Shown in pieces: positions 39,860 through 63,095 of a stretch of 64,000 nt of DNA. The stretch is from a virus: positions 1-64,000 of the IMG/VR virus record IMGVR_UViG_3300045740_000123; one strand, given 5' to 3'. A program made the translations under genes and the position numbers. The notes beneath the pieces were generated by a model. It was given only the letters and a program-made list of their open reading frames with translations. It did not search any database and had not been told where the DNA came from. Each line of letters starts with the position of its first letter. Positions within the stretch are counted from its first letter, which is position 1.

Positions 39860-39888
39860 GGCCGACTAGCCCAACGGCAGAGGCAAGC
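39860..39888 (+). pseudogene. orphan 5' half of tRNA-Leu
   Basis: GGCCGACTAGCCCAACGGCAGAGGCAAGC duplicates 5' part of the tRNA at 40258. Confidence 0.8.
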
Positions 39889-40275
39889 ATGAAACTCTAT
39901 GGCCCATACACTCGCAAAGATGGCAGACAACATGTCATTCTTTACGAAAATGGCAAACGCAAAACAGTAAGCTATCCCAAGTATTTACTTGAGACAAAGC
40001 TTGGTCGATCCCTTTTGCCTCATGAAACCTGTGATCACATTGATGGCAATCCTTTAAACAATTCTTTAGATAACTTGCAACTGCTATCCAGAGCGGATAA
40101 CATACGCAAGCACGCAGCTCTTTTACCTGCAGAGCTGGGAACTTTCACTTGTCCTATTTGTTTGTGTTCATTTACAAAACGAATGCATAACACTAGGCAC
40201 AATCGAAAGCAAGGAAAACGTGGACCTTATTGTTCACGTTCATGTGCAGGTAAAGCTGGCCGACTAGCCCAATAG
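39889..40275 (+). CDS. HNH homing endonuclease
   Basis: LGRSL..HETCDHIDGNPLNNSLDNLQLLSR..N; CPIC...YCSRSC; stop lies in tRNA D-loop. Confidence 0.88.
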   Translation: MKLYGPYTRKDGRQHVILYENGKRKTVSYPKYLLETKLGRSLLPHETCDHIDGNPLNNSLDNLQLLSRADNIRKHAALLPAELGTFTCPICLCSFTKRMHNTRHNRKQGKRGPYCSRSCAGKAGRLAQ

Positions 40276-40335
40276 GAAGCAGGCAAGCGACTTAAAATCG
40301 CTCAAGTCCCGGTTCGAATCCGGGGTCGGCTACCA
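40258..40335 (+). tRNA. trnL: tRNA-Leu(UAA), short variable loop, encoded CCA
   Basis: GGCCGAC/GTCGGCT acceptor, AGCGA-CTTAAAA-TCGCT anticodon arm, CCCGG-TTCGAAT-CCGGG T arm, ACCA end. Confidence 0.9.
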
Positions 40336-40356
40336 ACCCAAACTCAATTCAAACCC

Positions 40357-40719
40357 ATGCAATTCTTTGCTGCTTTCAAGTCCCTCATCCCTGAGTTCCA
40401 TGCCTACTCAGATGAGGACAATCGCTACAATCTTGGTGCCACCTGGACTGCAGCCGATGGCCTGAAGGACTATCACAACCTGGAGCTACGGTACATCCGT
40501 AACTCAGAGCGTCTTGCTCTCCAGGGTGAGCCCTGTCCTGATGGCAGCTGGCGCTACGTCGAGCCCAATGGTGCTGTCCATACCATCAGTCCTGAACGTG
40601 CCAAGCACTTCATGGAGCAAACCCAAGCTCATGCCACACTCATGGTTGGCATGCTTGATAAGTTACGGGATGCTGGCATCCTGGATCAGATGGTGGACAC
40701 CACGGCAGAACCTGCCTAA
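40357..40719 (+). CDS. hypothetical protein
   Basis: 120-aa ORF after C/A leader. Confidence 0.6.
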   Translation: MQFFAAFKSLIPEFHAYSDEDNRYNLGATWTAADGLKDYHNLELRYIRNSERLALQGEPCPDGSWRYVEPNGAVHTISPERAKHFMEQTQAHATLMVGMLDKLRDAGILDQMVDTTAEPA

Positions 40720-41068
40720 GATCACTGCGGAATGTTCGGCCCCTGCATGTGCGGGGGTCTTTTCTTCATGATCACTCCAGCTCAGTCAGAGATAGTTACA
40801 GATGTAACTGAACTCATTGCAGATTGCATCCCTGATTCCGAATGGGATCGGGTGCGTCAAGCAATTGTCGAACGCATTGTTGACAACATGCCATCACAAG
40901 TCATGATGCAACTAACTAACAGCGTTGACAACTTTGATTTTGCTGAGCTGGTACTCAACACTCACTACAAAGAAGCACCAAACCTTGAGTTGATTGTCGA
41001 TGCATTCAAACTCATTGGTGCTGAACAAACTGCTGACCTGCTTGATTCACTAAACATTCAACAAGAGA

Positions 41069-41473
41069 ATGGCATTCCAGAAGCCAATCCTTCCTGACTG
41101 TCCTCAATGCAATCAACCTGAACTCAAAGTTATTGAATCCAGGAAGACTGGTCTATCAACAAGACGCCGTAAGAAATGCGGTTGCTGTGGCTACAAGGTT
41201 ACAACCCATGAAGTTACAGCAGACTTCTTTGAAGAAGCCAAGCGCAATCTTTATCTTGTTGAGCAGCTCCACAAACTCATGGCAAATCAACCACTCACAT
41301 CCGGGGTGGTTCCACCCCCATCTGGGGTGAGTCCATCTGAGTTCAAAGCACTCAACAAATGCAGTGACTGCCAGCACAACAAAGATGGTTGTTACTGCGC
41401 TTTTGATTTCCCTGAGTACGACACTGCTGAGTCGTACGATTGCAATCACTTTCAACTCTGGAAATCCAAATGA
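41069..41473 (+). CDS. NrdR-like zinc-ribbon protein
   Basis: CPQC....KVIESR.....RRRKKC..CGYK.TTHE. Confidence 0.7.
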   Translation: MAFQKPILPDCPQCNQPELKVIESRKTGLSTRRRKKCGCCGYKVTTHEVTADFFEEAKRNLYLVEQLHKLMANQPLTSGVVPPPSGVSPSEFKALNKCSDCQHNKDGCYCAFDFPEYDTAESYDCNHFQLWKSK

Positions 41474-41817
41474 CACAACAACATCCCATCACCCCATCTC
41501 CCGAGCTAATACAGCAGTGGATTGATCAATCTTTACTTGCTATCAATTATGACCATTGTATTGCTATCCGGGCCGCCCAATGGGGCGCAGACCAAGAGCT
41601 GGAGGCTTGCTGTGAATGGATTGCTGATTGGTACGGACATGGATGCAATGAGGTAATTGACAATCTCCGCACCTCACGCCGCCCCAAGCAGCCGAGCTTG
41701 AAGGAGCAGGCGCTGAAAGAACTGGCATGGGTTGACGAGCATCTCGACATGCCGCTGCACAACCACTGCAACGCTATTCACGCAATCCGCCGCGCACTGG
41801 AGCAGCTCGATGACTAA
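41470..41817 (+). CDS. MTQQHPITP-family small protein, copy 1
   Basis: Shares blocks with 44250 and 45702 ORFs. Confidence 0.7.
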   Translation: MTQQHPITPSPELIQQWIDQSLLAINYDHCIAIRAAQWGADQELEACCEWIADWYGHGCNEVIDNLRTSRRPKQPSLKEQALKELAWVDEHLDMPLHNHCNAIHAIRRALEQLDD

Positions 41818-42052
41818 CTTCCAAGCACTTTGCGCTGAACTGGTGAAACAACTGGAAGGATGGCAGTGCTATGCGAGCCCGGATGGCCCCAACGCTAAGG
41901 TGCTGGACCGCGCCCGAGCCGCCCTATCCCAGCCCAAGCCGCCGAGTTTGAAGGAGCAGGCGCTAGAGGCGTTAGCTCACATTCTCAATAACAGCTCTAC
42001 TCAACTTGGTGCAGACACCATCCGCCGCGCACTTGAACAACTCCCTGATTAA
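41810..42052 (+). CDS. mosaic small protein sharing SLKEQAL/IRRALEQL blocks
   Basis: PKPPSLKEQAL...IRRALEQLPD. Confidence 0.65.
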   Translation: MTNFQALCAELVKQLEGWQCYASPDGPNAKVLDRARAALSQPKPPSLKEQALEALAHILNNSSTQLGADTIRRALEQLPD

Positions 42053-42355
42053 TTCAATGACAACCAAACGCCAGTACGACTACACCATTGGTGATCGCGT
42101 AGCAGAGCGTCCCAAATCCCATGGTATCTTTGCTGTACGCAATGAAACCAAAGATCGTATTCAGCAGTACAGGTCCCAGCGCTATGGCACTGTTGTTGGT
42201 ATTAATCTGAAACCAAACAAGTCAGGTGCTAAGCAGAAGTTCTTGCTGATCAGGTGGGATCATTTGCAGACTCCCACGGAACATGCACAGATGAGGATCT
42301 GTCCTGCTGATCAACTCCAGCGTTTACAATCTGAGGGTTATGGATTCGAAGTCGA

Positions 42356-42712
42356 ATGAAAGTCGACAAGCCATGGGGTTGGTACAACACACTGACCCCA
42401 GAACAAACCTCATTGTTCCGTGGCTACCTCGTTAAAGAACTACACATCAACAAAGGCCATCGCCTTAGCCTTCAGCGCCATCAACACCGGTGTGAACACT
42501 GGATTGTTGTCAATGGCGAAGGATTGTTTGAGTGTGATGGCCGCACACAAATTGTTAATGAAGGTACTCACTTGTACATTCCAAAGCAATCAGTCCATCG
42601 CCTCACTGCAACAAACCAAGACATTCGCATTGTCGAAGTTCAATGCGGTGAAGTAATCTCTGAAGACGACATCGAACGTTTAGAAGATGATTATGAACGA
42701 TCACAGAACTAG
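42356..42712 (+). CDS. mannose-6-phosphate isomerase type II-like cupin
   Basis: KPWG.Y, RLSLQRH.HR.EHWIVV.G, IVEVQ.G....EDDIERLEDDY. Confidence 0.88.
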   Translation: MKVDKPWGWYNTLTPEQTSLFRGYLVKELHINKGHRLSLQRHQHRCEHWIVVNGEGLFECDGRTQIVNEGTHLYIPKQSVHRLTATNQDIRIVEVQCGEVISEDDIERLEDDYERSQN

Positions 42713-42898
42713 CATGATTCTTCAGTCTATTGTCTGGGGTTTAATCTTTGGAACATTCATTGTACTTTTCATCGCAATGATCTTTGATACGCCAGAAACA
42801 ACTAGAGAGAAATTCAAAGTTGTTGACAACTACAAAGGTTGCGATGTTGTTCAGTACAATGATCCATCACAACGCTATCAGTACTTCTTGCACTGCTC

Positions 42899-43537
42899 AT
42901 GAACGTTGACTTAACTTGGGTAACGCCCAATGCTGAAGAACTCATCGTTAAGATGGCACGGGTCTCAGCACCTAAGAACCAAGACAACATGGAGACAGCT
43001 CCAAAGTTGTTGCGTTACTTGATCAAGCACAAGCACTGGTCGCCATTTGAAATGGCAAACATGTGCGTAGAAATCGAGACGACGCGTGCAATCTCACCAC
43101 AGATTCTTCGTCATCGTTCGTTTAGCTTCCAGGAATTTAGTCAGCGTTATGCAGACACAAATGAACTGGGCTCAGCTGTTATTCCGCATCTACGTAGACA
43201 AGATCAGAAGAACAGGCAAAACAGTATTGATGACTTATCTTCTGATCTTGTTGGTACTTATTATCGACGCATCAGTGAACTGTATGAGAACGCAGAACAT
43301 CTGTATCGCGAGATGGTAAGCAATGGTATTGCCAAGGAATGTGCCCGTTCCATTCTGCCGCTATCGACACAGACCCGTCTCTTCATGAACGGTACACTTA
43401 GGTCTTATATACATTATTTACAAGTGCGAACTGACCCAAGTACTCAGCTTGAGCATCGACAAATTGCCTTGGAAATCAAAAAGATTTTTTGCCAACAGTT
43501 TCCAATTATTGGTGAGGCTGTATTTAGTGATCAATGA
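42899..43537 (+). CDS. thyX: flavin-dependent thymidylate synthase
   Basis: HWSPFEM, QILRHRSFSFQEFSQRY, AKECAR, TQLEHR. Confidence 0.95.
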   Translation: MNVDLTWVTPNAEELIVKMARVSAPKNQDNMETAPKLLRYLIKHKHWSPFEMANMCVEIETTRAISPQILRHRSFSFQEFSQRYADTNELGSAVIPHLRRQDQKNRQNSIDDLSSDLVGTYYRRISELYENAEHLYREMVSNGIAKECARSILPLSTQTRLFMNGTLRSYIHYLQVRTDPSTQLEHRQIALEIKKIFCQQFPIIGEAVFSDQ

Positions 43538-43995
43538 TTAAGCATTGTCGTTATTGTGAGCAGGATAAACCTTCTGCTCACTTTTCTCCACACCCACATA
43601 CAACTGATCGTTTAAGTAACAAATGCAAAGACTGTGTCAGTGTTTACAACAAACTTCGACATTCAAAAAGAACCAGAAAAGAACTGGATTTAATCAATGC
43701 AAAACGAAGAGCAAACAGAAACACATGGAAAACCGATAGGAAAAAACATTTCAAAAGAGCATATGGAATTACTGTTGAAGACTATGAGGTAATGCTGGTT
43801 AACCAAAATAGTGTTTGCAAGATTTGCAATAAACCATGCAAGTCAGGTAAAAGTTTAGCTGTTGATCATTGCCATGAAACCGGAAAGGTCCGAGGTTTAC
43901 TGTGTGCAAAATGCAACACAAATCTTGGACGTATCGAAGCATACCTTCGTGATCCTAAACCATGGGATGATTATCTTAAATCCTACGAACCTTAA
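43534..43995 (+). CDS. endonuclease VII-type homing endonuclease
   Basis: YGIT..DY..M...Q...CKIC....LAVDHCHETGKVRGLLC..CN..LG. Confidence 0.9.
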   Translation: MIKHCRYCEQDKPSAHFSPHPHTTDRLSNKCKDCVSVYNKLRHSKRTRKELDLINAKRRANRNTWKTDRKKHFKRAYGITVEDYEVMLVNQNSVCKICNKPCKSGKSLAVDHCHETGKVRGLLCAKCNTNLGRIEAYLRDPKPWDDYLKSYEP

Positions 43996-44014
43996 CCATT
44001 ACCACTAATCACCC

Positions 44015-44230
44015 ATGCCCGTAACAACAATCAAACGCTGTCAATATGAATCCGAGTGGTGGTGGACAGTTGAAGACTGCGTTGCCGAGTACGACGTAGA
44101 GCCTGGCTCTGGCCTCACCATCAAGTATCACGACGACAATGATCAAGTGGGTGAGATAAAGCTAAGCCTTAGCAAGGAAGACGCTCTTCTCATTCGTGAT
44201 GCAATCAATCAGCTTTATCCGCCCTCTTAG
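44015..44230 (+). CDS. small hypothetical protein (cassette)
   Basis: 71 aa, flanked by conserved junctions. Confidence 0.65.
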   Translation: MPVTTIKRCQYESEWWWTVEDCVAEYDVEPGSGLTIKYHDDNDQVGEIKLSLSKEDALLIRDAINQLYPPS

Positions 44231-44249
44231 CCGCTTCTACTAATCACCT

Positions 44250-44486
44250 ATGACACAACAACATCCCATCACCCCGTCTAACCTTTCACCACAAGCCTGG
44301 GTTGTATTAGAAGCAGCCTATCAAGCACCTGACGGTAGGAACGCCACTCGCCAATGCGTTGCCGCCGCCCTGCGAGCTGCTGCGAATGAATTGGGCTATC
44401 GCATCATCTACGACGACGGTGACACCGAGTACAGGATTGATGTCACTGATCTGCTAGCCATTGCCGCCGAGCTTGAAGCCCAGTAG
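44250..44486 (+). CDS. MTQQHPITP-family small protein, copy 2
   Basis: Same N-terminus as copy 1; C-terminus shared with 46212 ORF. Confidence 0.7.
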   Translation: MTQQHPITPSNLSPQAWVVLEAAYQAPDGRNATRQCVAAALRAAANELGYRIIYDDGDTEYRIDVTDLLAIAAELEAQ

Positions 44487-44500
44487 TCACCTTCACTTCT

Positions 44501-44734
44501 ATGTCTGACAAGAAATCAACCAAGAAAATCGAGCGTTACAAGCTCGAAGCAGCATTCGTCTCCCTGGCGGACTACGACGTAACCACCAAAGGCGACGACT
44601 TCATGGAAGTGTCCATGTGGCACAACGGTGAGGGCTTCGATGTCATCGTCAACAGCAATGGCGAACAACGCTTTTGCCTGACATGGGGGCAGTACAAGGC
44701 GCTCAAGACGCTCGTAAAAGAGCTGGACGGCTAA
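44501..44734 (+). CDS. small hypothetical protein (cassette)
   Basis: 77 aa, DFMEVSMWHNGEGFDV. Confidence 0.65.
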   Translation: MSDKKSTKKIERYKLEAAFVSLADYDVTTKGDDFMEVSMWHNGEGFDVIVNSNGEQRFCLTWGQYKALKTLVKELDG

Positions 44735-44760
44735 GCCCAGTAGTCACCTTCCCTAAATGA

Positions 44761-44889
44761 ATCCACTACCTTGATCTCCGCTGCTCCAATGGAACTCAAC
44801 TCGAGCACCAACAAATTGCCAGAGCAATCAGAAAAATCTTCTGTGAACAATTCCCAATCATTGGAGAAGCTGTGTTCTCAGCAGATTAA
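44761..44889 (+). pseudogene. thyX: displaced second copy of thyX 3' end
   Basis: Translates IHYLDLRCSNGTQLEHQQIARAIRKIFCEQFPIIGEAVFSAD*, paralleling thyX C-terminus. Confidence 0.9.
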
Positions 44890-45144
44890 TGACTTGATTG
44901 AAAAGTACGAGGAGCCCGAGCAAGCCCGTCAGTTTTTAATGAAGGCTGGCGTCATTGATGAAGACGGTAATCTAATGCCTCCATGCCAAAAGACCCCAGA
45001 GAAAACTCAGGGGCCATTGGATGAATGGAGATCAGAAGGTCGCGGCGCTTTGTTTTTTTAATTCAGTAACAGCATGCTTGGACTCCACATCCTTGCGCGT
45101 CTGCTTCTTCCGTTTGTCTACCAGGTAGACGATCAGTGCTTTGT

Positions 45145-45297
45145 TCATTTGATTTGACCTCCGGTGACAAAGGGAAAGTAGCAAACGTTACGGTAGGTCA
45201 GACAGAGCCAGGGACGGTGGGCTAAGTTCCACCAGGCTTTGTCTGCCTTGGCCTGATCCTCTTGGTTGTATTTGCAACCACGATACGTTAACGTCAT
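45145..45297 (-). CDS. DUF4278-like small protein
   Basis: MTLTYRGCKY...LTYRNVCY duplicated motif. Confidence 0.75.
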   Translation of the reverse strand: MTLTYRGCKYNQEDQAKADKAWWNLAHRPWLCLTYRNVCYFPFVTGGQIK

Positions 45298-45304
45298 GGG
45301 TTTT

Positions 45305-45318
45305 GTATCTATTGATAC
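45305..45318. promoter_or_regulatory. putative NtcA box
   Basis: GTA-TCTATTGA-TAC (GTA-N8-TAC), 7 nt upstream of DUF4278-like ATG. Confidence 0.6.
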
Positions 45319-45701
45319 GGAAACTATATGACGATTGATGTATATGATGTCGTTCACCTGGTAACACAACTCAAAAGTTTAATGAAAGGTTTTGGTTCAA
45401 CTCAACAACCAACAAAGTCAGCAGCGTATTGGATAGCTGCTTATGCCAAAGACAACGAAGATGAACCACTTGGTGTGGTTAAGAAAGTCTTGACCTATAA
45501 ACCAGGACAGGACAAAGAACTCTTGATGATTCGTTACTGCAATTCAGTAATGAAAATCAACCGAAACATATGGGAGATGTTGGTCCACCAAGGACCAACT
45601 GAGATTCCAGACTCTGGTGACCAAATTGTTTTACGATTATCCAGGGAAAAGTTCAAGGGTTCTGCTCAAGTAAACTGACTAGCCATTACCACTAATCACC
45701 C

Positions 45702-46052
45702 ATGACACAACAACATCCCATCACCCCACCGCAGGAGCTGATTGAACAATGGGTGGACGAGTACATACATACCAAGCCAGACTGCACTGCTCCGCAGCTT
45801 GTTGCCGCCCGCTCCGCCCAATGGGGCGCAGACCAAGAGCTGGAGGCGTGCTGTGAGTGGCTGGAGCAGCAGACTCTGTGTGGCCACCAAGACTTGCTTC
45901 CTTCATTCCGCGCCGCCCGCCGCCCCAAGCCGCCGAACTTGAAGGAACAGGCGCTTGAAATCGTGAGGAAAACTCCAGTCAACAGCGCCGCACTTTATTC
46001 CTATGAGCACGTAGAAATCATCCGCCGTGCACTGGAGCAACTCAATGACTGA
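45702..46052 (+). CDS. MTQQHPITP-family small protein, copy 3
   Basis: AQWGADQELEACCEW, RRPKPP.LKEQAL, IRRALEQLND. Confidence 0.7.
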   Translation: MTQQHPITPPQELIEQWVDEYIHTKPDCTAPQLVAARSAQWGADQELEACCEWLEQQTLCGHQDLLPSFRAARRPKPPNLKEQALEIVRKTPVNSAALYSYEHVEIIRRALEQLND

Positions 46053-46211
46053 ACTACAGCACACTGACGAGGATCTTGATGAGTTTGCCACCTTCTGGTG
46101 GCGACCGGAAACAGATGACCTCACCGTTGCCACAGCAATCGAAAACGGCCAAATGACGGCGTTTGTTAGGGCTGTAGCTACATGGCTTACCGAATAGTCG
46201 CTTCCACTTCT

Positions 46212-46457
46212 ATGTCTGATCTTTCACCCGCTGCAGAAGCAGTTCTAAATGCCTACATGGATAACTGTGGCTGGCTAGATGGCCCTCTGCAAAGGGATTA
46301 TCAATGCGTTGCCACCACCCTGCGAGCTGCTGCGGATCAGGTGGTGCCGGAGGAGCCGCTTTACGGGGGTGATCAGCGCTGGATGTTTGAGCGCGATGCC
46401 CGCCAGGATTGTCGTAAGAAACTCCTCGCAATCGCTGATGAGCTTGAAACCCAGTAG
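46212..46457 (+). CDS. mosaic small protein (LSP.A..VL.A / LRAAA / LLAIA.ELE)
   Basis: Paralog of C-terminal part of 44250 ORF. Confidence 0.65.
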   Translation: MSDLSPAAEAVLNAYMDNCGWLDGPLQRDYQCVATTLRAAADQVVPEEPLYGGDQRWMFERDARQDCRKKLLAIADELETQ

Positions 46458-46826
46458 TCACCTTTATTAAAAGCTAAGCCGTGTGTGGAACCACGGCTCT
46501 ATGCTCTCCAGCTCAGACCAAGCTTCACGAGGCAAGGCCCTGACCGTTGCTGGTTACGGGTAACGCCCATGAAGTACAAAGGGCTTCCAAATCCTACATA
46601 AATGTTTTATATTTGCACTGGTTCTGCAGACCACTCGTGGCCACGAGTTAACCAGGAGGTGCAGAGTGGAAGCTGCACCTTTGACAAAAACGATGAAGCA
46701 AGCTGGGGAGTAAGGGCCGACCCTTACTTAAAATCCGTGAACGGGATCCCTAGCCCTTCATCACTGGACCTGAGCAAGTCCATAAACTACTCATAAGCTC
46801 AGCTTATCAATCAACTCAACTCAACC

Positions 46827-47597
46827 ATGAAACTTCTCAAGTTCTCCAAAGGCAATGGGAAGCTCAGCAACCGTCTGATCTTTAGCTTGCCTGCTGGCTA
46901 CTCATGCCCACACGCTGGTGTGTGCAAGACCTTTGCTGATCGCACCACTGGTGCCATCACTGACCTGCCTCAGTACACAGGTGTGACAGCTGAACGGGAC
47001 TTCCGTTGCTTTGCTGCCATGGCAGAGGTACGGCCTAACGTACGGGAAGCACGTTGGCACAATTGGGATCTGCTGCGTGAAACCATTCACATGAATGGGA
47101 ATCAAGCCATGTTGATCCGTGATCTGATCGACCTCTCACTCTTGATGCAGCCGCCGAAAGATCTGATCCGCATCCATGAGTCTGGTGACTTCTGGACTGA
47201 GAACTACATGAAGGCTTGGATGATGGTTGCTCAAGGCAGACCCGAGCAGAGGTTCTATGCCTACACCAAATCCCTTGGGATGTGGTACAACCTGCGTGAC
47301 ATGATCCCATCCAACTTCTATCTCACTGCATCGCACGGTGGTACGCTCGACTACTTGATGGACAAGTATCCTGAGGTATTCACCAGGGTTGCTCACGTTG
47401 TGTACACAGAAGAACAAGCCGCAGAGCTTGGTCTTGAGATTGACCATGACGACAGCCACTGCCTTGGCGACAAGCCCTTCGCACTGCTGGTCCATGGCTC
47501 CCAGAGGGCTGGCTCTGAGGCAAGCAAGGCCCTTGCTCAACGTAAGAAGGATGGTGGATTTGTGGGATACAACAAAGCAAAACAGAAGACAACTTGA
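46827..47597 (+). CDS. phage Gp88-like protein
   Basis: FSLPAG.SCP, C.A, IRIHESGDF, FYAYTK. Confidence 0.75.
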   Translation: MKLLKFSKGNGKLSNRLIFSLPAGYSCPHAGVCKTFADRTTGAITDLPQYTGVTAERDFRCFAAMAEVRPNVREARWHNWDLLRETIHMNGNQAMLIRDLIDLSLLMQPPKDLIRIHESGDFWTENYMKAWMMVAQGRPEQRFYAYTKSLGMWYNLRDMIPSNFYLTASHGGTLDYLMDKYPEVFTRVAHVVYTEEQAAELGLEIDHDDSHCLGDKPFALLVHGSQRAGSEASKALAQRKKDGGFVGYNKAKQKTT

Positions 47598-49947: not shown

Positions 49948-49984
49948 GACGTTAAACTGCCTCTCACACAAACTGTTTGAATCC

Positions 49985-55268: not shown

Positions 55269-55982
55269 ATGTCTCAAATCACCAAGACTAAGCTTGAGGA
55301 CCTTAACGTCATCAAGCTGTACGAGCACTATGGTGCCCTGGAGCGCTCTCTTCCTCTCCTCACTCCTGAGTCCCAAGAACTGGCAAAAGCTGAGCTGGAA
55401 GCTTGTGCCGACCTGCGTTCAGAAAAGATTGATCGCATTTACTACGCAATGGCAGCGCACGAAGATGCCTTGGAGCGTATTAAAAAAGAATCTGATCTAA
55501 TCACACAGGCTAAGAGGCATCACGAATCACAACTACAGTCTCTTAAAAATCTATTAAGCTGGCTGAGGCGGGTGCTTCCGTTGGACACCAGCCGTATTCA
55601 AGGCAAAAATTATGAGTTTGTCCTCAGCAAGAAAAAGGAACTCACGGTCGAGATCACGTCAGATCCAGAGTTTTGGCACTCTGACGAAAGAAAACTTTAT
55701 TGCATTGAACAAGAAACAACCACAACCAAACGAGTCGTGGTACGTTCAATGTCGGGAACAGTCATCTCAGAAAGAACTGAACCCAAAACTAAACTCGAAG
55801 TACTCCCAAATCTCGATGCAATCCGTAATGCCTATCAAGAAGGACGCCCCATCCCGCACGGTGTCAAAGTGGAACAGCAATATGCAGTCCGAAAAAACAG
55901 AATCTTCACCACTAAGCGGATGGCCGCACAAGCACCCGAATATATCGGAGAACTTCTATCAGAACCTGACGGCGCCGAATGA
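55269..55982 (+). CDS. Gp157/Gam-like coiled-coil protein
   Basis: SEKIDRI...IKKE..L...K, PNLDAIR.A...G..IP.GV. Confidence 0.65.
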   Translation: MSQITKTKLEDLNVIKLYEHYGALERSLPLLTPESQELAKAELEACADLRSEKIDRIYYAMAAHEDALERIKKESDLITQAKRHHESQLQSLKNLLSWLRRVLPLDTSRIQGKNYEFVLSKKKELTVEITSDPEFWHSDERKLYCIEQETTTTKRVVVRSMSGTVISERTEPKTKLEVLPNLDAIRNAYQEGRPIPHGVKVEQQYAVRKNRIFTTKRMAAQAPEYIGELLSEPDGAE

Positions 55983-56258
55983 TCTGGAAGATGCTCACAT
56001 CCTTATGTCCTGCTACCAGCAGGCAGTAGACGACTTCCGTCTACAAATTCAAATGGTTGAGATGGAACTCTCCATGCTTTGCCAAGGAGAAGAGCCACCT
56101 GCTTACCTGGAATCCAAGGTGGATGAGCTTGAATCTAAAAAACTCAAGCTCATGAGCGGTATGCGGTACAACCAGAATGCACGCAATGCTTATTGGTATG
56201 TCACCGCACGGGGCAATAAATAAACTGCAATACAATAAGTAGATGCAAGAGGAGTCCC

Positions 56259-56516
56259 ATGGGCGGCGATCCAGTTCTGAACAAGTTAATTGCTGGGTTT
56301 ACCAACGATGGGACTCCTTTAGCTGCAACCATTGGTTCAAAGATTGAGAATGGTGTCGTCATCTTGACGGCAGCCATGCTTGCTAATGAAAACCTTGCAG
56401 CTTCCATGGATGCAGAAGAAATGGTAGATGCTGCAATCAATTATTACAACATCATTCAAGAACGCATTGGTTACTACGAAAGTACCAAAGTTCAATCTTT
56501 AGAGCGTCTAATCTGA
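56259..56516 (+). CDS. hypothetical protein
   Basis: GAGGAG RBS, 85 aa. Confidence 0.6.
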   Translation: MGGDPVLNKLIAGFTNDGTPLAATIGSKIENGVVILTAAMLANENLAASMDAEEMVDAAINYYNIIQERIGYYESTKVQSLERLI

Positions 56517-56748
56517 TTAAAGTTTGCTGCTAAAGTATTTTGGTCTTCAATGGTTTAGATGGAACCGGTAACTGTGCCTAAGTTGACTGTCTCGTTTGCA
56601 GTTGACGTTGATGTGGAGTACAACTCCTTTGGCGGCAAAACAGCAGATGAGATTGCAGAGGCCTTGCAAGATGGTCTTGATGACCTTTTGTTTGAACTCT
56701 CACCTAACGTCAAAGGTGTCTATACTTCTGTCACAGCGGTGAATTTCA

Positions 56749-57048
56749 ATGACTGACGACCTTGCTAAAAAACTGAAAACTGCTGGTGCTTTTGATACGC
56801 CCTGGCTGAAAGAACAACTTCTCAACTGGGATGTTAAGGCTGAGCAGAAGAAAGCTGATTTCATGGAACACATGTATCAGTGTTCTGCACGTACCAATGG
56901 TCTTTACACTGGTCTGTGGCAAGACTTCTGCCTTAAAGAGGCAGGTCCCTACTGCCGAGATGAATTCTATAATCGCATTGAATTCATTGAAAAACTAAAG
57001 GCTGGAGAGTTTGATGATCAGGAAATGCAAATTCCTTTGACTGTTTAA
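56749..57048 (+). CDS. hypothetical protein
   Basis: FMEHMYQCS.R.NGLYTGLWQ. Confidence 0.6.
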   Translation: MTDDLAKKLKTAGAFDTPWLKEQLLNWDVKAEQKKADFMEHMYQCSARTNGLYTGLWQDFCLKEAGPYCRDEFYNRIEFIEKLKAGEFDDQEMQIPLTV

Positions 57049-57597
57049 ACAACATTCGTTTTTAGAATAGAAGGACGCGATCAAGCGTCTTTTTTATTTT
57101 TATATGGACTCCCGCAGCTCAATCGATTTACTGCGTCAACTTGATATCAACTACATCATTTACGTCGCATTGTCACATGATGACAAATGTAAAGATCCCG
57201 TTTCCGCCGAATGGCTTCAGGGTTATCATCAAGCAGTAAATGATGCCTCTGAATTCCTGCGCAATGGCAAACCTTGAAGACGTTTACGCACAAGCTTCTG
57301 AACTGTTCCCCAGTAAAAGGTTGGCCCAGGAGACGGCAAATAAAATCTTTAACGAGTCCAAGCAGTCGGCAAAGAACAGACTAGAAGAGTACCTGGGTGA
57401 TACCATTTCTGAATTCGTTGATACCAATTGCCTGACTGGTGAGGAGTTCTACGAGGTTCTCGTGGACTGTGTTCGTAAGAACTGGGAGTACTACCAGCGC
57501 AATGCTGACTGCAATAAAAACCTTCTTAATCTATTGAAACCACAATCTTCTGTTGAACTAGAAGAATACACAAAGAAATAAATTTTGTTTTGTGTTG

Positions 57598-57631
57598 CAT
57601 CCGTCTCGATCAGAGGCGGATGTTTTTGTTT
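57598..57631 (+). terminator. rho-independent terminator
   Basis: CATCCGTCTC-GATCA-GAGGCGGATG then T-run. Confidence 0.7.
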
Positions 57632-57670
57632 GTCTATACAAAGTAGAATAATAAAAACGAATTAATAGAC

Positions 57671-58990
57671 ATGCCTGTATATAGAGACCCTACAGATAAA
57701 AACCTGTATCACGTCCATAAGGTACAGACTTGTAGTGGTCGGCCGTTAGAAGTAACGACGGCAAGTGGCAACATTGTTCAGGTAACAACTGCTGGCACAA
57801 CTGCAGGTGATGCTTTTGGTCGTACTCGTGTATCCGAACCATTAACGCTCTTTGATTCCAGCCATCGTTATAGCGATAATGGACTGTGGGCAACTGCGAC
57901 AGGTGTTGGATCTGACGCAACGTTTAATGCTAACGCTGGCCTTGTTGAATTAAATGTACCAACAACATCTGGTGGTTACGTTAAGCGTGAAACCAAAAAG
58001 GTTTTTGCGTATCAGCCAGGGAAATCCTTGTTGGTCCTTTCGACTTTTACATTGAGTCCTGCTAAGACTAACCTGCGTCAGCGGGTTGGTTATTTTAATG
58101 ATGACAATGGACTTTATATTCAATTAAATAATTCGACCCTTGGTTTTGTTGAGCGTAATTCCGTAACTGGAACCCTAGAAGAAACAGTTGTTAATCAAGC
58201 CGATTGGAATATAGACAAGCTGGATGGCACCGGACCATCCGGTATAACACTTGATATCACCAAGGCTCAAATCTTTTGGATGGATATTGAATGGTTAGGA
58301 CTTGGAACAGTGCGTCTTGGTTTTGTGATCAATGGCGTATTTATTCATTGCCACTCTTTCCACCATGCAAACTTAATTACGAGTACCTATATCACCACGG
58401 CATGCCTACCGTTGCGGTATGAGATCGAAAACCTTGATACAACCTCAAGCAACAGCACATTAAAACAAGTATGTTCCACCGTTATTTCAGAGGGTGGATA
58501 CGAGTTGCGGGGTCGGCAAAATGCTATCGGAACCCCAATTAATTCACCACGAACCTTGACTTCTACTGAAGTTGTTTATCCAATTGCTTCCATCCGACTT
58601 AAAACAAGCCCTGACCGTCTTGATGCAATTGTCATTCCGACTGCCGCAAGCATACTTGGTTCTGGTAACAATGCATACTTTGAATGGCGCCTGCAAAGCC
58701 ATGCCACAACATCGGGTGGTACTTGGACCAGTGCAGGGGCCGATTCTTCTGTTGAGTACAACCTCAGCGGAGTTAGTACCAGTGGAGGAACTACCCTTGC
58801 TAAAGGTTACATCTCGTCCACAACACAAAGCAATAACTCCATCAATATCTTGAAAGCTGCTCTGTTTCAATTCCAGCTGCAGCGCAATGGGCTGATTGGT
58901 ACTCCAGAAGAATTCAGTCTTTTGGTTCAAACTGCAGACGCTAATAGTCAAGTATATGCATCAATTGACTGGGAAGAAATTTCTCTTTGA
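57671..58990 (+). CDS. putative virion-associated protein
   Basis: 439 aa, DAFGRTRVSEP.TLFDS, YQPGKS, WLGLG.VR.GF; Thr/Ser-rich. Confidence 0.6.
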   Translation: MPVYRDPTDKNLYHVHKVQTCSGRPLEVTTASGNIVQVTTAGTTAGDAFGRTRVSEPLTLFDSSHRYSDNGLWATATGVGSDATFNANAGLVELNVPTTSGGYVKRETKKVFAYQPGKSLLVLSTFTLSPAKTNLRQRVGYFNDDNGLYIQLNNSTLGFVERNSVTGTLEETVVNQADWNIDKLDGTGPSGITLDITKAQIFWMDIEWLGLGTVRLGFVINGVFIHCHSFHHANLITSTYITTACLPLRYEIENLDTTSSNSTLKQVCSTVISEGGYELRGRQNAIGTPINSPRTLTSTEVVYPIASIRLKTSPDRLDAIVIPTAASILGSGNNAYFEWRLQSHATTSGGTWTSAGADSSVEYNLSGVSTSGGTTLAKGYISSTTQSNNSINILKAALFQFQLQRNGLIGTPEEFSLLVQTADANSQVYASIDWEEISL

Positions 58991-59016
58991 TAGACTGGTA
59001 CCACTGATTAAAAGCT

Positions 59017-59568
59017 ATGTATACTCCTGGTCCTCAAGTGGTTCCTGCGCCTGAAGCAGCGCCAATGCAGCCTGTTCCAGAACCTCAGGCAAAGCCAAAA
59101 GGCCCTGCCCGTTCAAAGAATGGTGATGTCGGGGCCTTTATCCAGCAGTGCATCTCCTTGGCTTCTTACCTCAAGGAACTTCAGACACAAGCCCATCTTA
59201 TTCACCTGAACTACGAGGGGTCGAACTTCCTCGGGGTGCATGCTTTCCTTGGAGATCAGTACGAGGCTCATCAGACTCAATTTGATACGTTGTCGGAATT
59301 CATCAGGTCTATGGATTACCTGATGCCTATGTGTGCCAGGGGTCTAGCCGATGCTGGTCCTGGCATCCAGCACGTTACCAGCTACAAGGGAAGCGATCAG
59401 CTCACCACGTACTACAAAAACCTGGAAGAGCTGGGCATGAAGACCAAGAAGCTGGAGCCTATTGCTGCCAAGGTGGGTGCTATTGATATCCAGAACTACA
59501 TGGCTGAGCTGTGTGGTCAAGCCTTTAAGGCTGCTTGGCAAATCAAAGCTACACTTAGGACTTCTTAA
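59017..59568 (+). CDS. Dps/ferritin-like protein
   Basis: HLIHLNYEGSNFL.VH.FL..QYE.....FD.LSE.IRS, KAAW.IKA. Confidence 0.8.
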   Translation: MYTPGPQVVPAPEAAPMQPVPEPQAKPKGPARSKNGDVGAFIQQCISLASYLKELQTQAHLIHLNYEGSNFLGVHAFLGDQYEAHQTQFDTLSEFIRSMDYLMPMCARGLADAGPGIQHVTSYKGSDQLTTYYKNLEELGMKTKKLEPIAAKVGAIDIQNYMAELCGQAFKAAWQIKATLRTS

Positions 59569-60013
59569 ATTTTTGCCCTGGAATAACTGGTTGCATTACT
59601 GCGTCGTAATGTGACCAACCAAGTTTTAATCGTCGTTCAATAGTCTGACGTTTAAGGCCTATTTCTAGCGCCCATTCTTTAACTGTTTGGCATTTGCCAT
59701 CAATGGTTATATAAATACACATTGAACGATTTCTGTTTTGTTCAATGCGTGTTGCCCATTTGCAATTATCTGGAGAATAACCTTTGCTTAAATTAATGCG
59801 TTCAATAGAGTATTCTTTACCAGGTCGTTCTCCCATGTCCATTAAAAAGTTTTCAAAACTATTCCATCTATCACAAACTTTAATTCCTTTTGCACCATAT
59901 CTTTCGTAGGCTTTTGTATTTGGATTATTACATCTTGAGCGCATATTATGCCAAGTAGAATGAGTCAAAGAACGAATACCGTTTGTCGAATGGCCATGTC
60001 GTTGAGCGCTCAT
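59555..60013 (-). CDS. HNH-like homing endonuclease
   Basis: W.NMRSRC.NP....Y.RYG.KGI.VC.RW..FENF..DMG.RP...SIERI....GYSP.NC.WAT...Q.RN. Confidence 0.8.
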   Translation of the reverse strand: MSAQRHGHSTNGIRSLTHSTWHNMRSRCNNPNTKAYERYGAKGIKVCDRWNSFENFLMDMGERPGKEYSIERINLSKGYSPDNCKWATRIEQNRNRSMCIYITIDGKCQTVKEWALEIGLKRQTIERRLKLGWSHYDAVMQPVIPGQKFKKS

Positions 60014-60043
60014 TGCCAAGGTTGCGGAAGTAACCAGTCTAAC

Positions 60044-60067
60044 AAAGCCACGTTGCGCAATGGCTGA
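60044..60067 (+). pseudogene. displaced 3' end of Dps-like gene
   Basis: AAA GCC ACG TTG CGC AAT GGC TGA = KATLRNG*, versus KATLRTS* in gene; TGA overlaps next ATG. Confidence 0.7.
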
Positions 60068-60927
60068 TGCCAAACATCTTTCAAAACTTTCTTAACCAAG
60101 TAACTTCTGGTTATCGCCAAGCAGATAAACAGTTGGGTGGATGGTTGCCAGGGGGTGGCACTGCTTCTCCTGTGACGCGTATAGTATTCCCTCCTCAAAG
60201 CTTTCCTGCCAGAAGCAAAGAGCTTCAACAAATGACAGGCGTCAAAGGACGTTTTGTAGATATTGATAAAACCCCGACAATTACGCGACAAATTGCACAA
60301 ACAGTGGCTCCACTGTGGGGATCGCAGCCCTATGCAAACCCTTTGATTGGCGAGGTTGGCGCCCCCGGTTATAGGGGAGGAGCAACACCAAGAGAAAGAC
60401 ACTTAGAAATTCATGAGCTTGGTCATTTAAATCCAGCCGATAAAGGCATCTATAGTTATTTAGGCGTAGCTGGAAGATACTTGCAAGGACTTAGCAACAG
60501 CACTGGTAACTTACCTGTTGTTGATCTTTTGGCTGGTAAACTAATGAAACATTTTGATGCACAGGAGGAAGACCGTGCAGAACGTTTTGCAGCTCGTTTT
60601 GCAACCCAAGGAAATTATCCTGCTCCTCAAATAAACCCTGAAGGAACCTCTGCCTATGGAGATCGGCTAAGAAAAGAAGGTAGTGAGATGAGCGAAAATG
60701 CTGTTAGTAGAATGCTTAATCCTTGGGGAATCCCTGAAAAAATAACCGGGCTTGTAAATCAACAACGGGCATCTATTCTACAAAATGAATTATCACGCTC
60801 ACTTCCTATTTATCGGGAACGTTTTGGAGGGGAAACCGAGCTTTCTCCAGAAAATTTAAAAGAAACAGAACGTCTTAACAATTTGGCAAAGCAAATAGAA
60901 GCTTTAGGAATTCAACCAAGGTACTAA
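60067..60927 (+). CDS. hypothetical protein with HExxH motif
   Basis: EIHELGH...EEDRAERFA. Confidence 0.55.
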   Translation: MPNIFQNFLNQVTSGYRQADKQLGGWLPGGGTASPVTRIVFPPQSFPARSKELQQMTGVKGRFVDIDKTPTITRQIAQTVAPLWGSQPYANPLIGEVGAPGYRGGATPRERHLEIHELGHLNPADKGIYSYLGVAGRYLQGLSNSTGNLPVVDLLAGKLMKHFDAQEEDRAERFAARFATQGNYPAPQINPEGTSAYGDRLRKEGSEMSENAVSRMLNPWGIPEKITGLVNQQRASILQNELSRSLPIYRERFGGETELSPENLKETERLNNLAKQIEALGIQPRY

Positions 60928-61181
60928 GTTACTGACCAGTGCTCAAGCCTGTGGCAATTGCAGCATAACGGGATGCACTTGCTGATCTCTTCTTCTACTC
61001 GGCCCCAGCCGTAGCCATGGTTCACCATGTCAGATATGTTGTTATCCTTGTCTCCAATGTGGTGAAACTCTAAGACACGGTGATCATCCAACCCACACTT
61101 CTTGCACTGCAGAGTCTTCTTGTACTCCAGAAGCTTCTGTCGATTCTTGTTGATACGTTCCTTGGATTGACTCCAGGGCAT
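60924..61181 (-). CDS. small HNH-like protein
   Basis: CKKCG.....LEFHH...EEISKCIPLCCNCHR..H. Confidence 0.8.
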   Translation of the reverse strand: MPWSQSKERINKNRQKLLEYKKTLQCKKCGLDDHRVLEFHHIGDKDNNISDMVNHGYGWGRVEEEISKCIPLCCNCHRLEHWSVT

Positions 61182-61233
61182 TCATAGCTTTATTGGTGTA
61201 ATTAATATAACGCTTTTATTGGAATTGTTGATA

Positions 61234-61270
61234 TCGGAGATGCAGGATTCGAACCTGCGACCCTCTGCTC
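61234..61270 (-). pseudogene. 3' half of interrupted tRNA (Pro-type acceptor)
   Basis: GAGCAGA-GGGTC-GCAGG-TTCGAAT-CCTGC-ATCTCCG-A. Confidence 0.88.
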
Positions 61271-61662
61271 TATTTAGCTTTTTGTTTCTTCACCTCTCTT
61301 TGCTTTTTACCCGCCTGGCTTTTTGCTGTTTTGCACAAATCACACCGACATCCATATTTGGAATACGACCAAACTGTCCCATGTGTTTGTCGTTTTTCGT
61401 TGGTCCAGCCTTTACCATAACTTCCTTCTTCTAAAGTCTTAATGTGATGACAGGGTTTGCAAAGTAACTGACACTTTTTAAGTTCTGTTTCTAATGTATC
61501 CCAATGGGTTGACCACTTGCAGCTAATATCAAAACTTTTAGAAGTGTGATCTATGTGGTCAATATGCAACAAATCAGAACAGCCGCATTTAATGCAAACA
61601 CCCCCAAGAAAATCAATCATCTCTTGGCGACGTTTTTTGTAATCAGAAATTTTTGAAACCAT
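61270..61662 (-). CDS. HNH endonuclease inside tRNA
   Basis: LGGVCIKCG....LHIDHID...ELKKCQLLCKPCH..KT; HGT...Y..YGCRC..C; ATG 61662. Confidence 0.88.
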   Translation of the reverse strand: MVSKISDYKKRRQEMIDFLGGVCIKCGCSDLLHIDHIDHTSKSFDISCKWSTHWDTLETELKKCQLLCKPCHHIKTLEEGSYGKGWTNEKRQTHGTVWSYSKYGCRCDLCKTAKSQAGKKQREVKKQKAK

Positions 61663-61667
61663 AAAAA

Positions 61668-61738
61668 TCGGGGTGGAAGGTACTGCCCCTTCTCCTCCGC
61701 CTCCCAAAGACGGCGTGATACTTTTCTACTACACCCCG
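61668..61738 (-). tRNA. trnP: atypical tRNA-Pro(UGG)
   Basis: CGGGGTG/CACCCCG acceptor plus A, CCGTC-TTTGGGA-GGCGG anticodon arm, GAAGG-GGCAGTA-CCTTC non-canonical T arm, weak D arm. Confidence 0.75.
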
Positions 61739-61755
61739 AGGGGTCCGATCAATTT

Positions 61756-61788
61756 AGCAGATGCGCTACCAAACTGCGCTAATCCCCG
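61756..61788 (-). pseudogene. 5' half of interrupted tRNA (Pro-type)
   Basis: CGGGGAT-TA-GCGC-AGTTTGGTA-GCGC-A-TCTGC-T; pairs with 3' half at 61234-61270. Confidence 0.88.
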
Positions 61789-61912
61789 GTGTTAGGGCGA
61801 GAGTGTCTGCCTACGATGATCTACGATGCAGCCGAGGGGACTCTTCGTTTAATACGACGTTCCTTGTCGTACCCTTTGCAGCCCCATCGGAAAGAGAGGG
61901 GGTACTTATTTA

Positions 61913-62461
61913 TTATACAGATTCATTGGGTGTTTTCCAGAAATAATCATCGCATTCTCCAAGCCGACCCCACTTCTCTTCCCGATAATCAATATCTTTA
62001 GTTAAAAAATCAATAGCGTTTTTCAATATTTGGATATTGTCTTTGGCGTGGCCAAGCATTGTATTGCATCTATGGCATAAAAGCCCTCTAACCTTGCCTG
62101 TTTCATGGCAATGATCTACACAAAATGTTTTCTTTGGAGCGGGACTGTTTGTTTTGCATATGGCGCAACAACCTTTTTGAATTTCCAGAATTTGTTTGTA
62201 TCTACCCCTAGGTAAACCATAGGAACGCAAACGATCAAGATCATTAGCGTGTTCTAAATTGTTTTGGCGCCATCGATTGTAATTTTCTTGATGGCGCTTT
62301 TTGTTTTTTCTTGACCATTCCCGGCTGTACTCGTTTGTACAAACACGGCACCAAGTATTTAAACCATCTTTGTTTTTCTTTGCTTTGTTAAAAGCATCCT
62401 TGGATTTAATCTCTAGGCATTTGGTGCATTTTTTCGTTGGGAGTTTGCCAGAAATAGTCAT
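61913..62461 (-). CDS. endonuclease VII-type homing endonuclease fused to displaced C-terminus of upstream gene
   Basis: CTKC..CRVC; YGL....Y...L..Q.GCCAIC....VDHCHETGKVRGLLC.RCN..LG; ends KWGRLGECDDYFWKTPNESV. Confidence 0.9.
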   Translation of the reverse strand: MTISGKLPTKKCTKCLEIKSKDAFNKAKKNKDGLNTWCRVCTNEYSREWSRKNKKRHQENYNRWRQNNLEHANDLDRLRSYGLPRGRYKQILEIQKGCCAICKTNSPAPKKTFCVDHCHETGKVRGLLCHRCNTMLGHAKDNIQILKNAIDFLTKDIDYREEKWGRLGECDDYFWKTPNESV

Positions 62462-63095
62462 CGCACTCGCCTAGGCGCCCCCATTTTAACGCTTTTTCAG
62501 AGTCAAAGTATCGAGTCGATACCTTAAAGTCTGGTGTCTTTAGATCGTGGTTGGTGAGCGATGGATCAACCATTCGACAACGATTGTTGGGATAAGCGCC
62601 AATTTGACCGTTGTCCAAAGCCACAATGTTGTGGGACTTATGCTCGTCAGGAAATTCCGCAAAGTAAAAATCCGGTTCGTTCCTATGAGGATGATAATTG
62701 TCAACCGTAAATAGGTATGTGCCTTTCATTACACCTGCACTACGTGTCATAACTTGAAACTCCATATTGAAGATCAAGTTCTTTTCGACAACCGTAAGAC
62801 CATGATCAAATCCATTCCAGAACTGCAGGTCAGTTAGCTCTAGGTCAGGAGTGGGTGCTTGAGGTTTGTCCGGATAATCTGGATCCCATGCCAGGAATGC
62901 ACTGATGGGAAGCTTGTCGTAAAGGGCTCCGTACTCAGTAAGATAAGTCTCAAACTGAAGTGCTCTACCAGTTAAAGATTTACAACTTACCCAATAACCA
63001 GGCGTATATTCACCATGACCGTCTCTTAGGTCACGTAAGTATTCACGCCTTACCCAAACCTTGACGGGCGGGACATTGGCCACAAGAGTTGTCAC
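62406..63095 (-). CDS. conserved hypothetical phage protein
   Basis: 229 aa; LVANVPP..VWVRREYL.D...GHGE, EHKSHN..ALDNGQ..AYPNNR. Confidence 0.7.
   Translation of the reverse strand: MTTLVANVPPVKVWVRREYLRDLRDGHGEYTPGYWVSCKSLTGRALQFETYLTEYGALYDKLPISAFLAWDPDYPDKPQAPTPDLELTDLQFWNGFDHGLTVVEKNLIFNMEFQVMTRSAGVMKGTYLFTVDNYHPHRNEPDFYFAEFPDEHKSHNIVALDNGQIGAYPNNRCRMVDPSLTNHDLKTPDFKVSTRYFDSEKALKWGRLGECDDYFWQTPNEKMHQMPRD

Follow-up and report, generated by a model that had tools for sequence, protein, structure and literature searches.

How can a nuclease gene come to lie within a conserved gene, with no intron or intein to remove it, while that gene remains complete? The question is raised by a stretch of 64,000 nucleotides (nt), here called the window, which comprises bases 1-64000 of IMG/VR record IMGVR_UViG_3300045740_000123, a complete viral contig 85,144 bp in length that carries direct terminal repeats. 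Within it, open reading frames (ORFs) for nucleases are found inside five target genes: tRNA-Leu(UAA), thyX, a Dps-like gene, tRNA-Pro(UGG), and a gene of family phrog_3704 at 62406-63095. As set out below, these very probably represent five free-standing His-Me-finger homing endonuclease genes, each joined to a diverged functional substitute for the gene part that it severs. In the three protein-coding genes (thyX, Dps-like and phrog_3704) the substitute is a new 3' end; at tRNA(UAA) it is a new 5' part, and at tRNA-Pro(UGG) a whole alternative tRNA. The native part would, as an equally probable element of the same reading, be left behind as an untranslated or unusable fossil. The host appears to be a freshwater phage resembling Synechococcus phage S-EIVl. 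The public runs in which the contig is present are from freshwater, sediment and drinking water, with no RNA run listed among them, and in a nucleotide search of public phage genomes the sole match of any length among isolated phages was 879 bp at 79% identity to S-EIVl.

Six nuclease ORFs between 39860 and 63095 were confirmed by Pfam or PHROGs, and five of them fall within the pattern, with domains of known homing endonuclease families at all five loci. The sixth, a short HNH ORF (60924-61181, minus strand), occupies the same place in relatives, is without a flanking duplication and lies outside the pattern. The original prediction, made from the sequence before any database search, had placed a nuclease ORF inside each of the five targets with target sequence on both sides. 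This anatomy is present at all five loci as described, except that the flanking sequences at tRNA-Pro are split halves around an insert and not a duplication; the three nuclease types that had been proposed are instead four sequence families of one fold superfamily. The in-use genes are full length relative to their family profiles (Pfam, PHROGs), and nuclease-free (empty) alleles exist in colinear relatives at all five loci. The genome-wide scan for flanking duplications that had been suggested was run as a six-frame self-search and returned three that flank nucleases, at thyX, at the 62406-63095 gene and at a sixth site near 63.6-64.4 kb, the remaining local duplications being paralogue families, repeats and low-complexity matches. 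The features are collected in Table 1; records used for comparison carry L or G numbers.

Table 1. Target genes, nucleases and stranded gene parts at the five loci (window coordinates).
Feature	Position	Strand	Remarks
Stranded native 5' part of tRNA(UAA), 29 nt (acceptor strand, D arm, anticodon-stem start)	39860-39888	+	Identical to the nuclease-free intact tRNA of G003 (L163)
HNH_3 homing endonuclease	39889-40275	+	PF13392 E 3.8e-7; phrog_14913 E 1.9e-23
In-use tRNA-Leu(UAA), chimera	40258-40335	+	ARAGORN; Rfam 53 bits; 5' part from cassette, 3' part native
thyX hybrid gene	42899-43537	+	Native body to ~43404, foreign 3' end 43405-43537; Thy1 domain complete
Endonuclease VII (Endo VII)-motif (F-CphI-like) homing endonuclease	43534-43995	+	PF02945 E 1.2e-21; start overlaps thyX stop (ATGA)
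Three small ORFs in thyX insert, between nuclease and stranded tail	44015-44734	+	
Stranded native thyX 3' end	44757-44889	+	Stop codon just before; colinear with L082 downstream flank
Dps-like (ferritin-fold) gene	59017-59568	+	PF00210; phrog_3636; in-use tail 59539-59568 (QIKATLRTS-stop) belongs to insert
HNH homing endonuclease, opposite strand	59555-60073	-	Likely ATG at 60013; phrog_3377 E 1.5e-49
Stranded native Dps end, KATLRNG-stop	60044-60067	+	Overlaps ATG of next gene
3' half of resident canonical tRNA-Pro(UGG)	61234-61269	-	Aligns with intact tRNA-Pro of L002, L003, L009, L010
HNH homing endonuclease	61270-61662	-	phrog_4234 E 4.4e-32
Substitute tRNA-Pro(UGG) in cassette	61668-61738	-	Rfam tRNA 37.5 bits (gathering score 29)
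5' half of resident canonical tRNA-Pro(UGG)	61756-61788	-	Acceptor and anticodon stems pair with 3' half
Endo VII-motif homing endonuclease	61913-62461	-	PF02945 E 2.7e-25
phrog_3704 gene (annotated 'ferredoxin')	62406-63095	-	E 1.7e-97, full length; in-use end (copy A) 62430-62486

At thyX, the C-terminal 40 codons occur twice, at 43409-43528 and 44761-44880 (1352 bp apart; 72.5% protein identity, E 2e-16 in the six-frame self-search), and the two tails bound an insert of 1352 bp. Nine codons are identical between the tails, 20 differ synonymously and 11 non-synonymously. When compared in steps of 60 nt with the nearest empty allele, L082, thyX is 80-92% identical up to 43399, drops to 31/60 (52%) at 43400-43459 and then stands at 43/60. 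Of 120 nt compared with L082, 108 agree in the stranded tail and 74 in the in-use one, and the stranded tail and its downstream flank together are colinear with L082 at 87-92% identity. The step in identity at about 43405 and the closer relationship of the stranded tail to L082 therefore identify thyX as a hybrid gene with a foreign 3' end. No Endo VII ORF adjoins thyX in L082-L086, and the insert was not seen in any related record or run. The nearest relatives of the thyX nuclease (L188 and L189; 48% identical) stand free downstream of an undisturbed thyX, which fits the starting arrangement proposed below.

Two further observations were made in and around thyX genes. A family of small genes beginning MTQQHPITP is represented three times within 41440-46470 (at 41470, 44250 and 45702), with near-identical start regions and shared end motifs; one member lies inside the thyX insert, and the repeated junctions could act as recombination points. 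Additionally, an unrelated thyX contig (L092:3001-4044) carries a second partial thyX (47% identity at the protein level) some 220 nt downstream, with no nuclease between the two, and ends there.

At tRNA-Leu(UAA), it is the 5' part that is duplicated. The stranded 29 nt directly abut the ATG of the HNH_3 gene, of which the last 18 nt and the stop codon TAG lie inside the in-use tRNA, with the TAG falling within the D-loop. The in-use tRNA, which is the sole tRNA that ARAGORN calls in the genome, has a 5' part supplied by the cassette, in which the D-loop has been rewritten (AATAGGAAGCA). The nuclease-bearing L174 and L175, whose layout is the same as that of the window, share this D-loop, and empty alleles do not. 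In G003 and G004, tRNA(UAA) is intact and HNH_3 is absent. As a side observation, the UAA-anticodon tRNA of these phages (window 40258-40335; L163, L164, L179) differs from bacterial class II tRNA-Leu in its length of only about 76 nt and in its short variable loop; in the closest relative, G001, the corresponding place is taken by a normal tRNA-Leu(UAA) of 86 nt.

The HNH family of this cassette is tied to tRNA(UAA) in many phages, where it is accommodated in more than one manner. In L179, the HNH gene resides in a group I intron (RF00028, 64.8 bits), which lies between U34 and A35 of the same short tRNA; the corresponding intron scores are 42 bits in L178 and 38 bits in L181. In L183 (1144-1700), an insert at 31/32 of the resident short tRNA(UAA) contains an HNH gene of the same family together with a complete class II tRNA-Leu(UAA). 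The intron of L179, the replacement 5' part of the window, L174 and L175, and the whole tRNA of L183 therefore represent three ways in which a single nuclease family spares its host gene. In L176, L177, L182 and L184, candidate stranded tRNA 5' fragments upstream of the HNH gene scored no better than shuffled sequence. The intron-borne nucleases of L179, L178 and L181 belong to the same HNH family as that of the window (45-53% identity), they occupy the same short tRNA(UAA) gene family, and their insertion point (34/35) is a few bases away from that of the window (about 29/30). The window cassette differs from the L179 type in that it has no ribozyme; a duplicated 5' part takes the place of splicing in preserving a working gene.

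At tRNA-Pro(UGG), an insert of 486 nt stands in place of the anticodon bases TTGGG and separates the two halves of the resident canonical tRNA; it contains a complete tRNA-Pro(UGG)-like gene and an HNH gene. The canonical tRNA-Pro is intact and in the same place in L002, L003, L009 and L010. A pattern search recovered the odd tRNA-Pro from 37 metagenome contigs. All four elements of the layout, from the canonical 5' half through the odd tRNA and the HNH gene to the canonical 3' half, are present in 15 records, namely 12 metagenome contigs, the window, L172 and L173; in L381 and L397 the 5' half is missing. In about 20 other phage contigs the odd tRNA-Pro occurs alone, within tRNA clusters or after another HNH-like ORF, and the close relatives L004 and L005 have it as a stand-alone gene at the genomic position that it occupies in the window. 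Since it stands alone in many contigs, the odd tRNA-Pro is thus a natural allele and not debris.

Its structure is conserved as well. The search pattern had fixed the D and T arms and left the acceptor and anticodon stems free; in nine distinct sequences these two stems are 100% paired, six of the pairs change on both sides, and none of 500 shuffles reached the covariation score. Rfam scores for the odd tRNA-Pro range from 37.5 to 41.5 bits, and the fold of the window copy has a z-score of -2.6. Read from the sequence, the substitute has C1-G72, A73, U33, G37 and the anticodon loop UUUGGGA. The elements C1-G72, A73, U33 and G37 fit the proline identity of bacterial tRNA-Pro. We infer that the substitute tRNA-Pro functions in translation. 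A further tRNA-like sequence (…GGATAAGACGGTTACTGCCG…GTAGGTTCGAATCCTACC), which ARAGORN does not call, directly follows the stand-alone odd tRNA-Pro in L004 (3925-4090), L371, L382 and others.

The two tRNA loci also raise the question of whether the inserts might be introns or inteins, such that the native genes are restored at the RNA or protein level and the substitutes are irrelevant. The tRNA-Leu nuclease does have the group I intron-borne relatives described above, and the tRNA-Pro insert follows a U and ends in a G, as group I introns do. However, no match to the group I intron model (Intron_gpI) was found in 38000-64000 at E values up to 1, and the nuclease ORFs occupy separate frames or the opposite strand, no separate search for intein motifs having been made. 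Joining the tRNA-Pro halves would yield an anticodon loop of 2 nt with no anticodon; the Dps nuclease is encoded on the opposite strand; and the stranded thyX tail lies 1.35 kb away, beyond several ORFs and behind a stop codon. The in-use genes, moreover, are already complete. Splicing is a highly improbable explanation for these inserts.

At the Dps-like gene, the duplication amounts to only about five codons: the in-use KATLR lies at 59545-59559 and the stranded one at 60044-60058, with four of the five codons differing through six base changes, all of them synonymous. Such a repeat is too short to be significant alone, and it is comparison with relatives that establishes the duplication. 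Most of some 50 empty alleles end in KATLRNG-stop, frequently with the same overlap into the start of the next gene that the stranded piece shows, while every nuclease-bearing allele (8/8) ends in LRSS-stop or LRTS-stop. In the seven other records with this HNH gene beside Dps (L268-L273 and L280), where its flanks are the same, the LRSS-stop tail is followed by the same spacer, and a stranded piece resembling ATLRNG-stop lies beside the HNH start in six of them (L268-L273). The Dps genes of the cassette-bearing records are only 44-77% identical to that of the window. The empty form was also recovered directly: a contig of run X6 joins 59538 to 60044 with TTTGTT between them, and reads AAW, FV and KATLRNG-stop in succession. 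The phrog_3377 HNH is absent from L002. In L030, a nuclease-free Dps allele ends in KATLRSS-stop, like the tails of the cassettes; this is possibly the footprint of a nuclease loss that left the imported end in place.

The same units in diverged backgrounds, as would be expected of a mobile element, were thus found for the Dps cassette and for the tRNA-Pro cassette, whose 15 records differ in their flanks. For the thyX and phrog_3704 cassettes, which were seen in one and two genomes, respectively, such evidence of mobility was not obtained.

At the phrog_3704 gene, a 19-codon block, KWGRLGECDDYFW(Q/K)TPNE, occurs twice, as the in-use copy A (62430-62486) and the stranded copy B (61919-61975). 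The ATG of the Endo VII ORF lies within copy A, and its last 20 codons are copy B in frame. The two copies share 44 of 57 nt, with nine synonymous differences and one replacement. The agreement of the two copies in amino acids, as originally described for the protein cases, is true of thyX only to the extent of 72%. This Endo VII ORF occurs only in the window and in L002/L348, 78 other relatives being without it.

Several observations weigh against the reading of imported substitutes, and the first of these concern the phrog_3704 gene. Against the nearest empty alleles, L004 and L005, copy A scores 50/57 and the stranded copy B 44/57, and the best match of B to any empty allele is 48/57. The 60 nt preceding copy A are likewise most like L004 and L005 (51/60), and copy B, being fused in frame to the nuclease ORF, could travel along with it. 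These features would suit a reverse polarity, in which the in-use ends are native and the stranded copies arrived with the nuclease cassette from a previous host. However, copy B and the native downstream flank are colinear, and between the window and L002, the two genomes that bear the nuclease, copy A is shared (56/57) and copy B differs. Across 77 empty alleles, identity to B tracks gene-body identity better than identity to A does (rho 0.62 versus 0.28), and sliding identity between the window and L002 across the locus gives a mosaic without a clear cassette boundary. Polarity at this gene appears only to lean the same way as at the other four loci.

At those four loci, the stranded part is the original one, as had been predicted, and it is this part, and not the in-use end, that the empty alleles resemble. 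Reverse polarity is refuted at thyX by the 108/120 versus 74/120 comparison and the sharp junction, at tRNA-Leu by the identity of the stranded 29 nt to the empty allele of G003, at Dps by the stranded RNG-stop, which overlaps the start codon of the next gene as it does in empty alleles, and at tRNA-Pro by the halves, which are those of the canonical allele. Taken over all five loci, reverse polarity is therefore very unlikely.

A second set of contrary points comes from the Dps locus, where the duplication spans only about 15 nt and the two copies in L272 are identical at 14 of 15 positions; the L272 pattern would fit a small duplication made at insertion as well as it fits an imported end. 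Together with the phrog_3704 copies, which differ almost only at third positions, this raises the possibility that insertion duplicated a short target stretch in situ, by target-site duplication or slipped repair, and that the copies then diverged synonymously through drift or through selection against cleavage or recombination, with no foreign import. Such an origin does not account for the in-use thyX tail, with its 11 amino-acid changes in 40 codons and the identity step at its junction, nor for the substitute tRNA-Pro, a separate natural allele that stands alone in many phages. Furthermore, the RSS-stop or RTS-stop tail of Dps is common to cassettes whose hosts have Dps genes of the low identity given above. 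In-situ duplication is therefore an unlikely source of the second copies. The recoded copy that had originally been predicted is, accordingly, present in the sense that a diverged copy is supplied, yet at thyX and tRNA-Pro it is a diverged natural allele from another lineage and not a purpose-made recoding.

The remaining contrary points are more scattered. A donor genome with the exact in-use thyX tail was not found, and among the 80 best thyX loci there is no case in which this Endo VII ORF adjoins the gene. The substitute tRNA-Pro, with its D loop AAAAGUA and T loop GGCAGUA, is without the canonical G18G19 / T54-Psi55-C56 elbow, and ARAGORN does not call it. Finally, the cleavage of empty alleles, the target sites, the immunity of the in-use copies and the repair pathway are elements that we infer.

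The sixth site detected by the self-search extends beyond the five loci and past the end of the window, from 63601-64000 on to about 64372. Here an Endo VII-motif ORF lies inside a small conserved gene; the cassette is absent from L002, L003, L009 and L010. The native 5' end (…KYTKPELRERIKDRVMAGSKGGKPGQ-stop) is stranded upstream, and a new 5' end (MAEDKSKYTKPDLRERIKNKVMREGRGGKPGEWS) follows the nuclease; between this end and ARKAQLV, where the reading frame is taken up again, a short interval contains stop codons. Apart from the six nuclease ORFs confirmed between 39860 and 63095, an Endonuclease_7 ORF begins at 63729 on the minus strand, and an additional HNH-type ORF is found elsewhere in the window, at 14566-15144 on the plus strand.

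Because the contig is metagenomic, and because empty and filled alleles occur together in single samples, the duplications could in principle be false, having arisen from the mis-joining of strain mixtures during assembly. Bridging by other contigs was examined over 59000-63200, which covers the Dps-like, tRNA-Pro and 62406-63095 loci. Six of the junctions at these three loci are bridged by contigs from independent runs of other studies, with 0-12 differences, only stretches with contig cover having been counted as evidence. Contigs of X3 bridge 59524-60117, 61371-61785 and 61763-62313 with no differences, and those of X9 bridge 61249-61633 (4 differences) and 61947-62508 (12 differences). In addition, apart from the thyX insert, the same layouts recur in many independent IMG/VR and metagenome records, and the chance that they are assembly artefacts is close to negligible. 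The empty forms are present as contig joints (61975 to 62503, and canonical anticodon loops spanning 61262-61763) in samples that also hold the filled forms. Filled and empty alleles are therefore found side by side in nature, as an active homing element would lead one to expect.

The following sequence of events is proposed for how imported substitutes might come to be joined to nucleases. The nuclease would first have lived beside a naturally resistant allele of its target, and would then have cut the sensitive allele of a co-infecting relative. Repair of the break could have proceeded by homologous recombination on one side and by illegitimate joining at the cut on the other, copying the resistant piece and the nuclease into the gene and stranding the remainder. 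Later spread would be by ordinary homing, with the gene body and the stranded piece serving as homology arms. These steps of origin and spread are put forward because they follow established homing biology and the fungal precedent considered below.

If substitutes are indeed imported in this manner, selfish nucleases that bring the missing piece with them can enter conserved phage genes, tRNA genes included, with no need of an intron or intein. Gene segments would thereby be moved between phage lineages to give hybrid genes such as thyX, and decoy fragments would be left behind that confuse annotation and phylogeny; in trees of phage marker genes, terminal segments that adjoin nucleases should therefore be masked. 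One tRNA allele could likewise displace another across a phage population, and the tRNA cases would provide a compact natural model of a nuclease-plus-rescue drive.

A broader proposal can be advanced only tentatively, as somewhat short of an even chance: that phage homing endonucleases routinely act as natural cleave-and-rescue drives, with a rescue that ranges from a few codons to a whole gene; that one HNH family has arrived at three solutions at tRNA(UAA); and that the substitute tRNA-Pro is functional and has been spread by a linked nuclease that destroys the canonical allele. If this is true, the long-argued routes between free-standing and intron-borne endonucleases become directly testable within one family. 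The HNH family at tRNA(UAA) allows the intron-borne and rescue-borne lifestyles to be compared directly.

Among known systems, F-CphI of cyanophage S-PM2, of the DHHRN family, is a free-standing homing endonuclease with an Endo VII motif and belongs to an established cyanophage family (PMC6083498). The nucleases at 43534-43995 and 61913-62461 resemble it in having a Cys-rich N-terminal part followed by a C-terminal Endonuclease_7 catalytic domain, and, like F-CphI, these thyX and phrog_3704 nucleases are free-standing in a phage related to a Synechococcus phage and adjoin or lie inside a conserved gene. The F-CphI gene, in contrast, is flanked by psbA and psbD, its target is an intron insertion site, and a carried replacement end has not been described for it. 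Barth et al. 2023 (PMC10055350) note that some small genes beside phage homing endonucleases, in so-called 'HEG islands', are fragments of essential genes. In contrast to the analysis of the window, the passages of that paper considered here do not work out the native copy, and describe neither a substitute terminus nor a substitute tRNA.

Two phage systems share with the window cassettes the combination of a free-standing homing endonuclease and a device that keeps the invaded gene working while destroying the nuclease's own target site. The MobA-gene 60 cassette of phage T4, reportedly described by Bonocora and colleagues in 2011, is said to consist of an endonuclease and a 50-nt ribosomal bypass. 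The other is the mobE-split nrdA of phage Aeh1 (Friedrich 2007, as cited in PMC8351571). In these systems, the repair consists of translational hopping or of two polypeptides, whereas the window cassettes bring a substitute coding or RNA segment; the sixth cassette may combine the two ways, a hopping or split arrangement and a substitute segment.

Engineered Cleave-and-Rescue and home-and-rescue drives (PMC6442612) link a nuclease that destroys the wild type, Cas9, to an uncleavable version that restores it, in animals and plants. The window cassettes are natural and protein-guided, and the likeness is one of working only. In the literature covered, a phage homing endonuclease with a replacement terminus or a replacement tRNA was not found; this coverage was incomplete, so that the result is not proof of absence.

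The mechanism itself is already known: it matches mobile ORFs of fungal mitochondria that come with a foreign C-terminus and create a hybrid gene (PMC3630166). In Allomyces macrogynus atp6, as Paquin et al. 1994 is represented in PMC3630166, a mobile endonuclease ORF is accompanied by a foreign gene C-terminus. In Glomus, atp6, atp9, cox2 and nad3 end in a foreign C-terminus, and the displaced native one is still present downstream (Beaudet et al. 2013, PMC3630166; compare PMC6279837). The fungal loci and the protein-gene loci of the phage alike consist of a gene body, an in-frame foreign terminus, an endonuclease ORF that is sometimes in phase with the gene, and a stranded native terminus. 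An in-frame inserted terminus followed by an endonuclease ORF and then the native terminus is found at thyX, the Dps-like gene and the phrog_3704 gene, and a native terminus that is closer to relatives than the inserted one at thyX and Dps (RNG-stop versus RTS-stop). Even the degree of divergence is comparable: in Glomus atp6 the native terminus is at 91% and the inserted one, which has diverged mostly synonymously, at 64% (PMC3630166), as against 90% and 62% for thyX.

The phage loci differ from the fungal ones in that they reside in a phage genome and not in an organelle, and in that their nucleases are of the His-Me-finger type (HNH, Endo VII motif) and not LAGLIDADG or GIY-YIG enzymes. Moreover, the replaced part is a 5' end in some phage cassettes, tRNA genes are invaded in two cases, and one cassette carries a whole substitute gene. 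While the principle is thus known from fungal mitochondria, what is new here is the phage setting, the number of cases, with five to six from four nuclease families in one genome, the rescue by a whole tRNA, and the contrast between intron and rescue within one HNH family.

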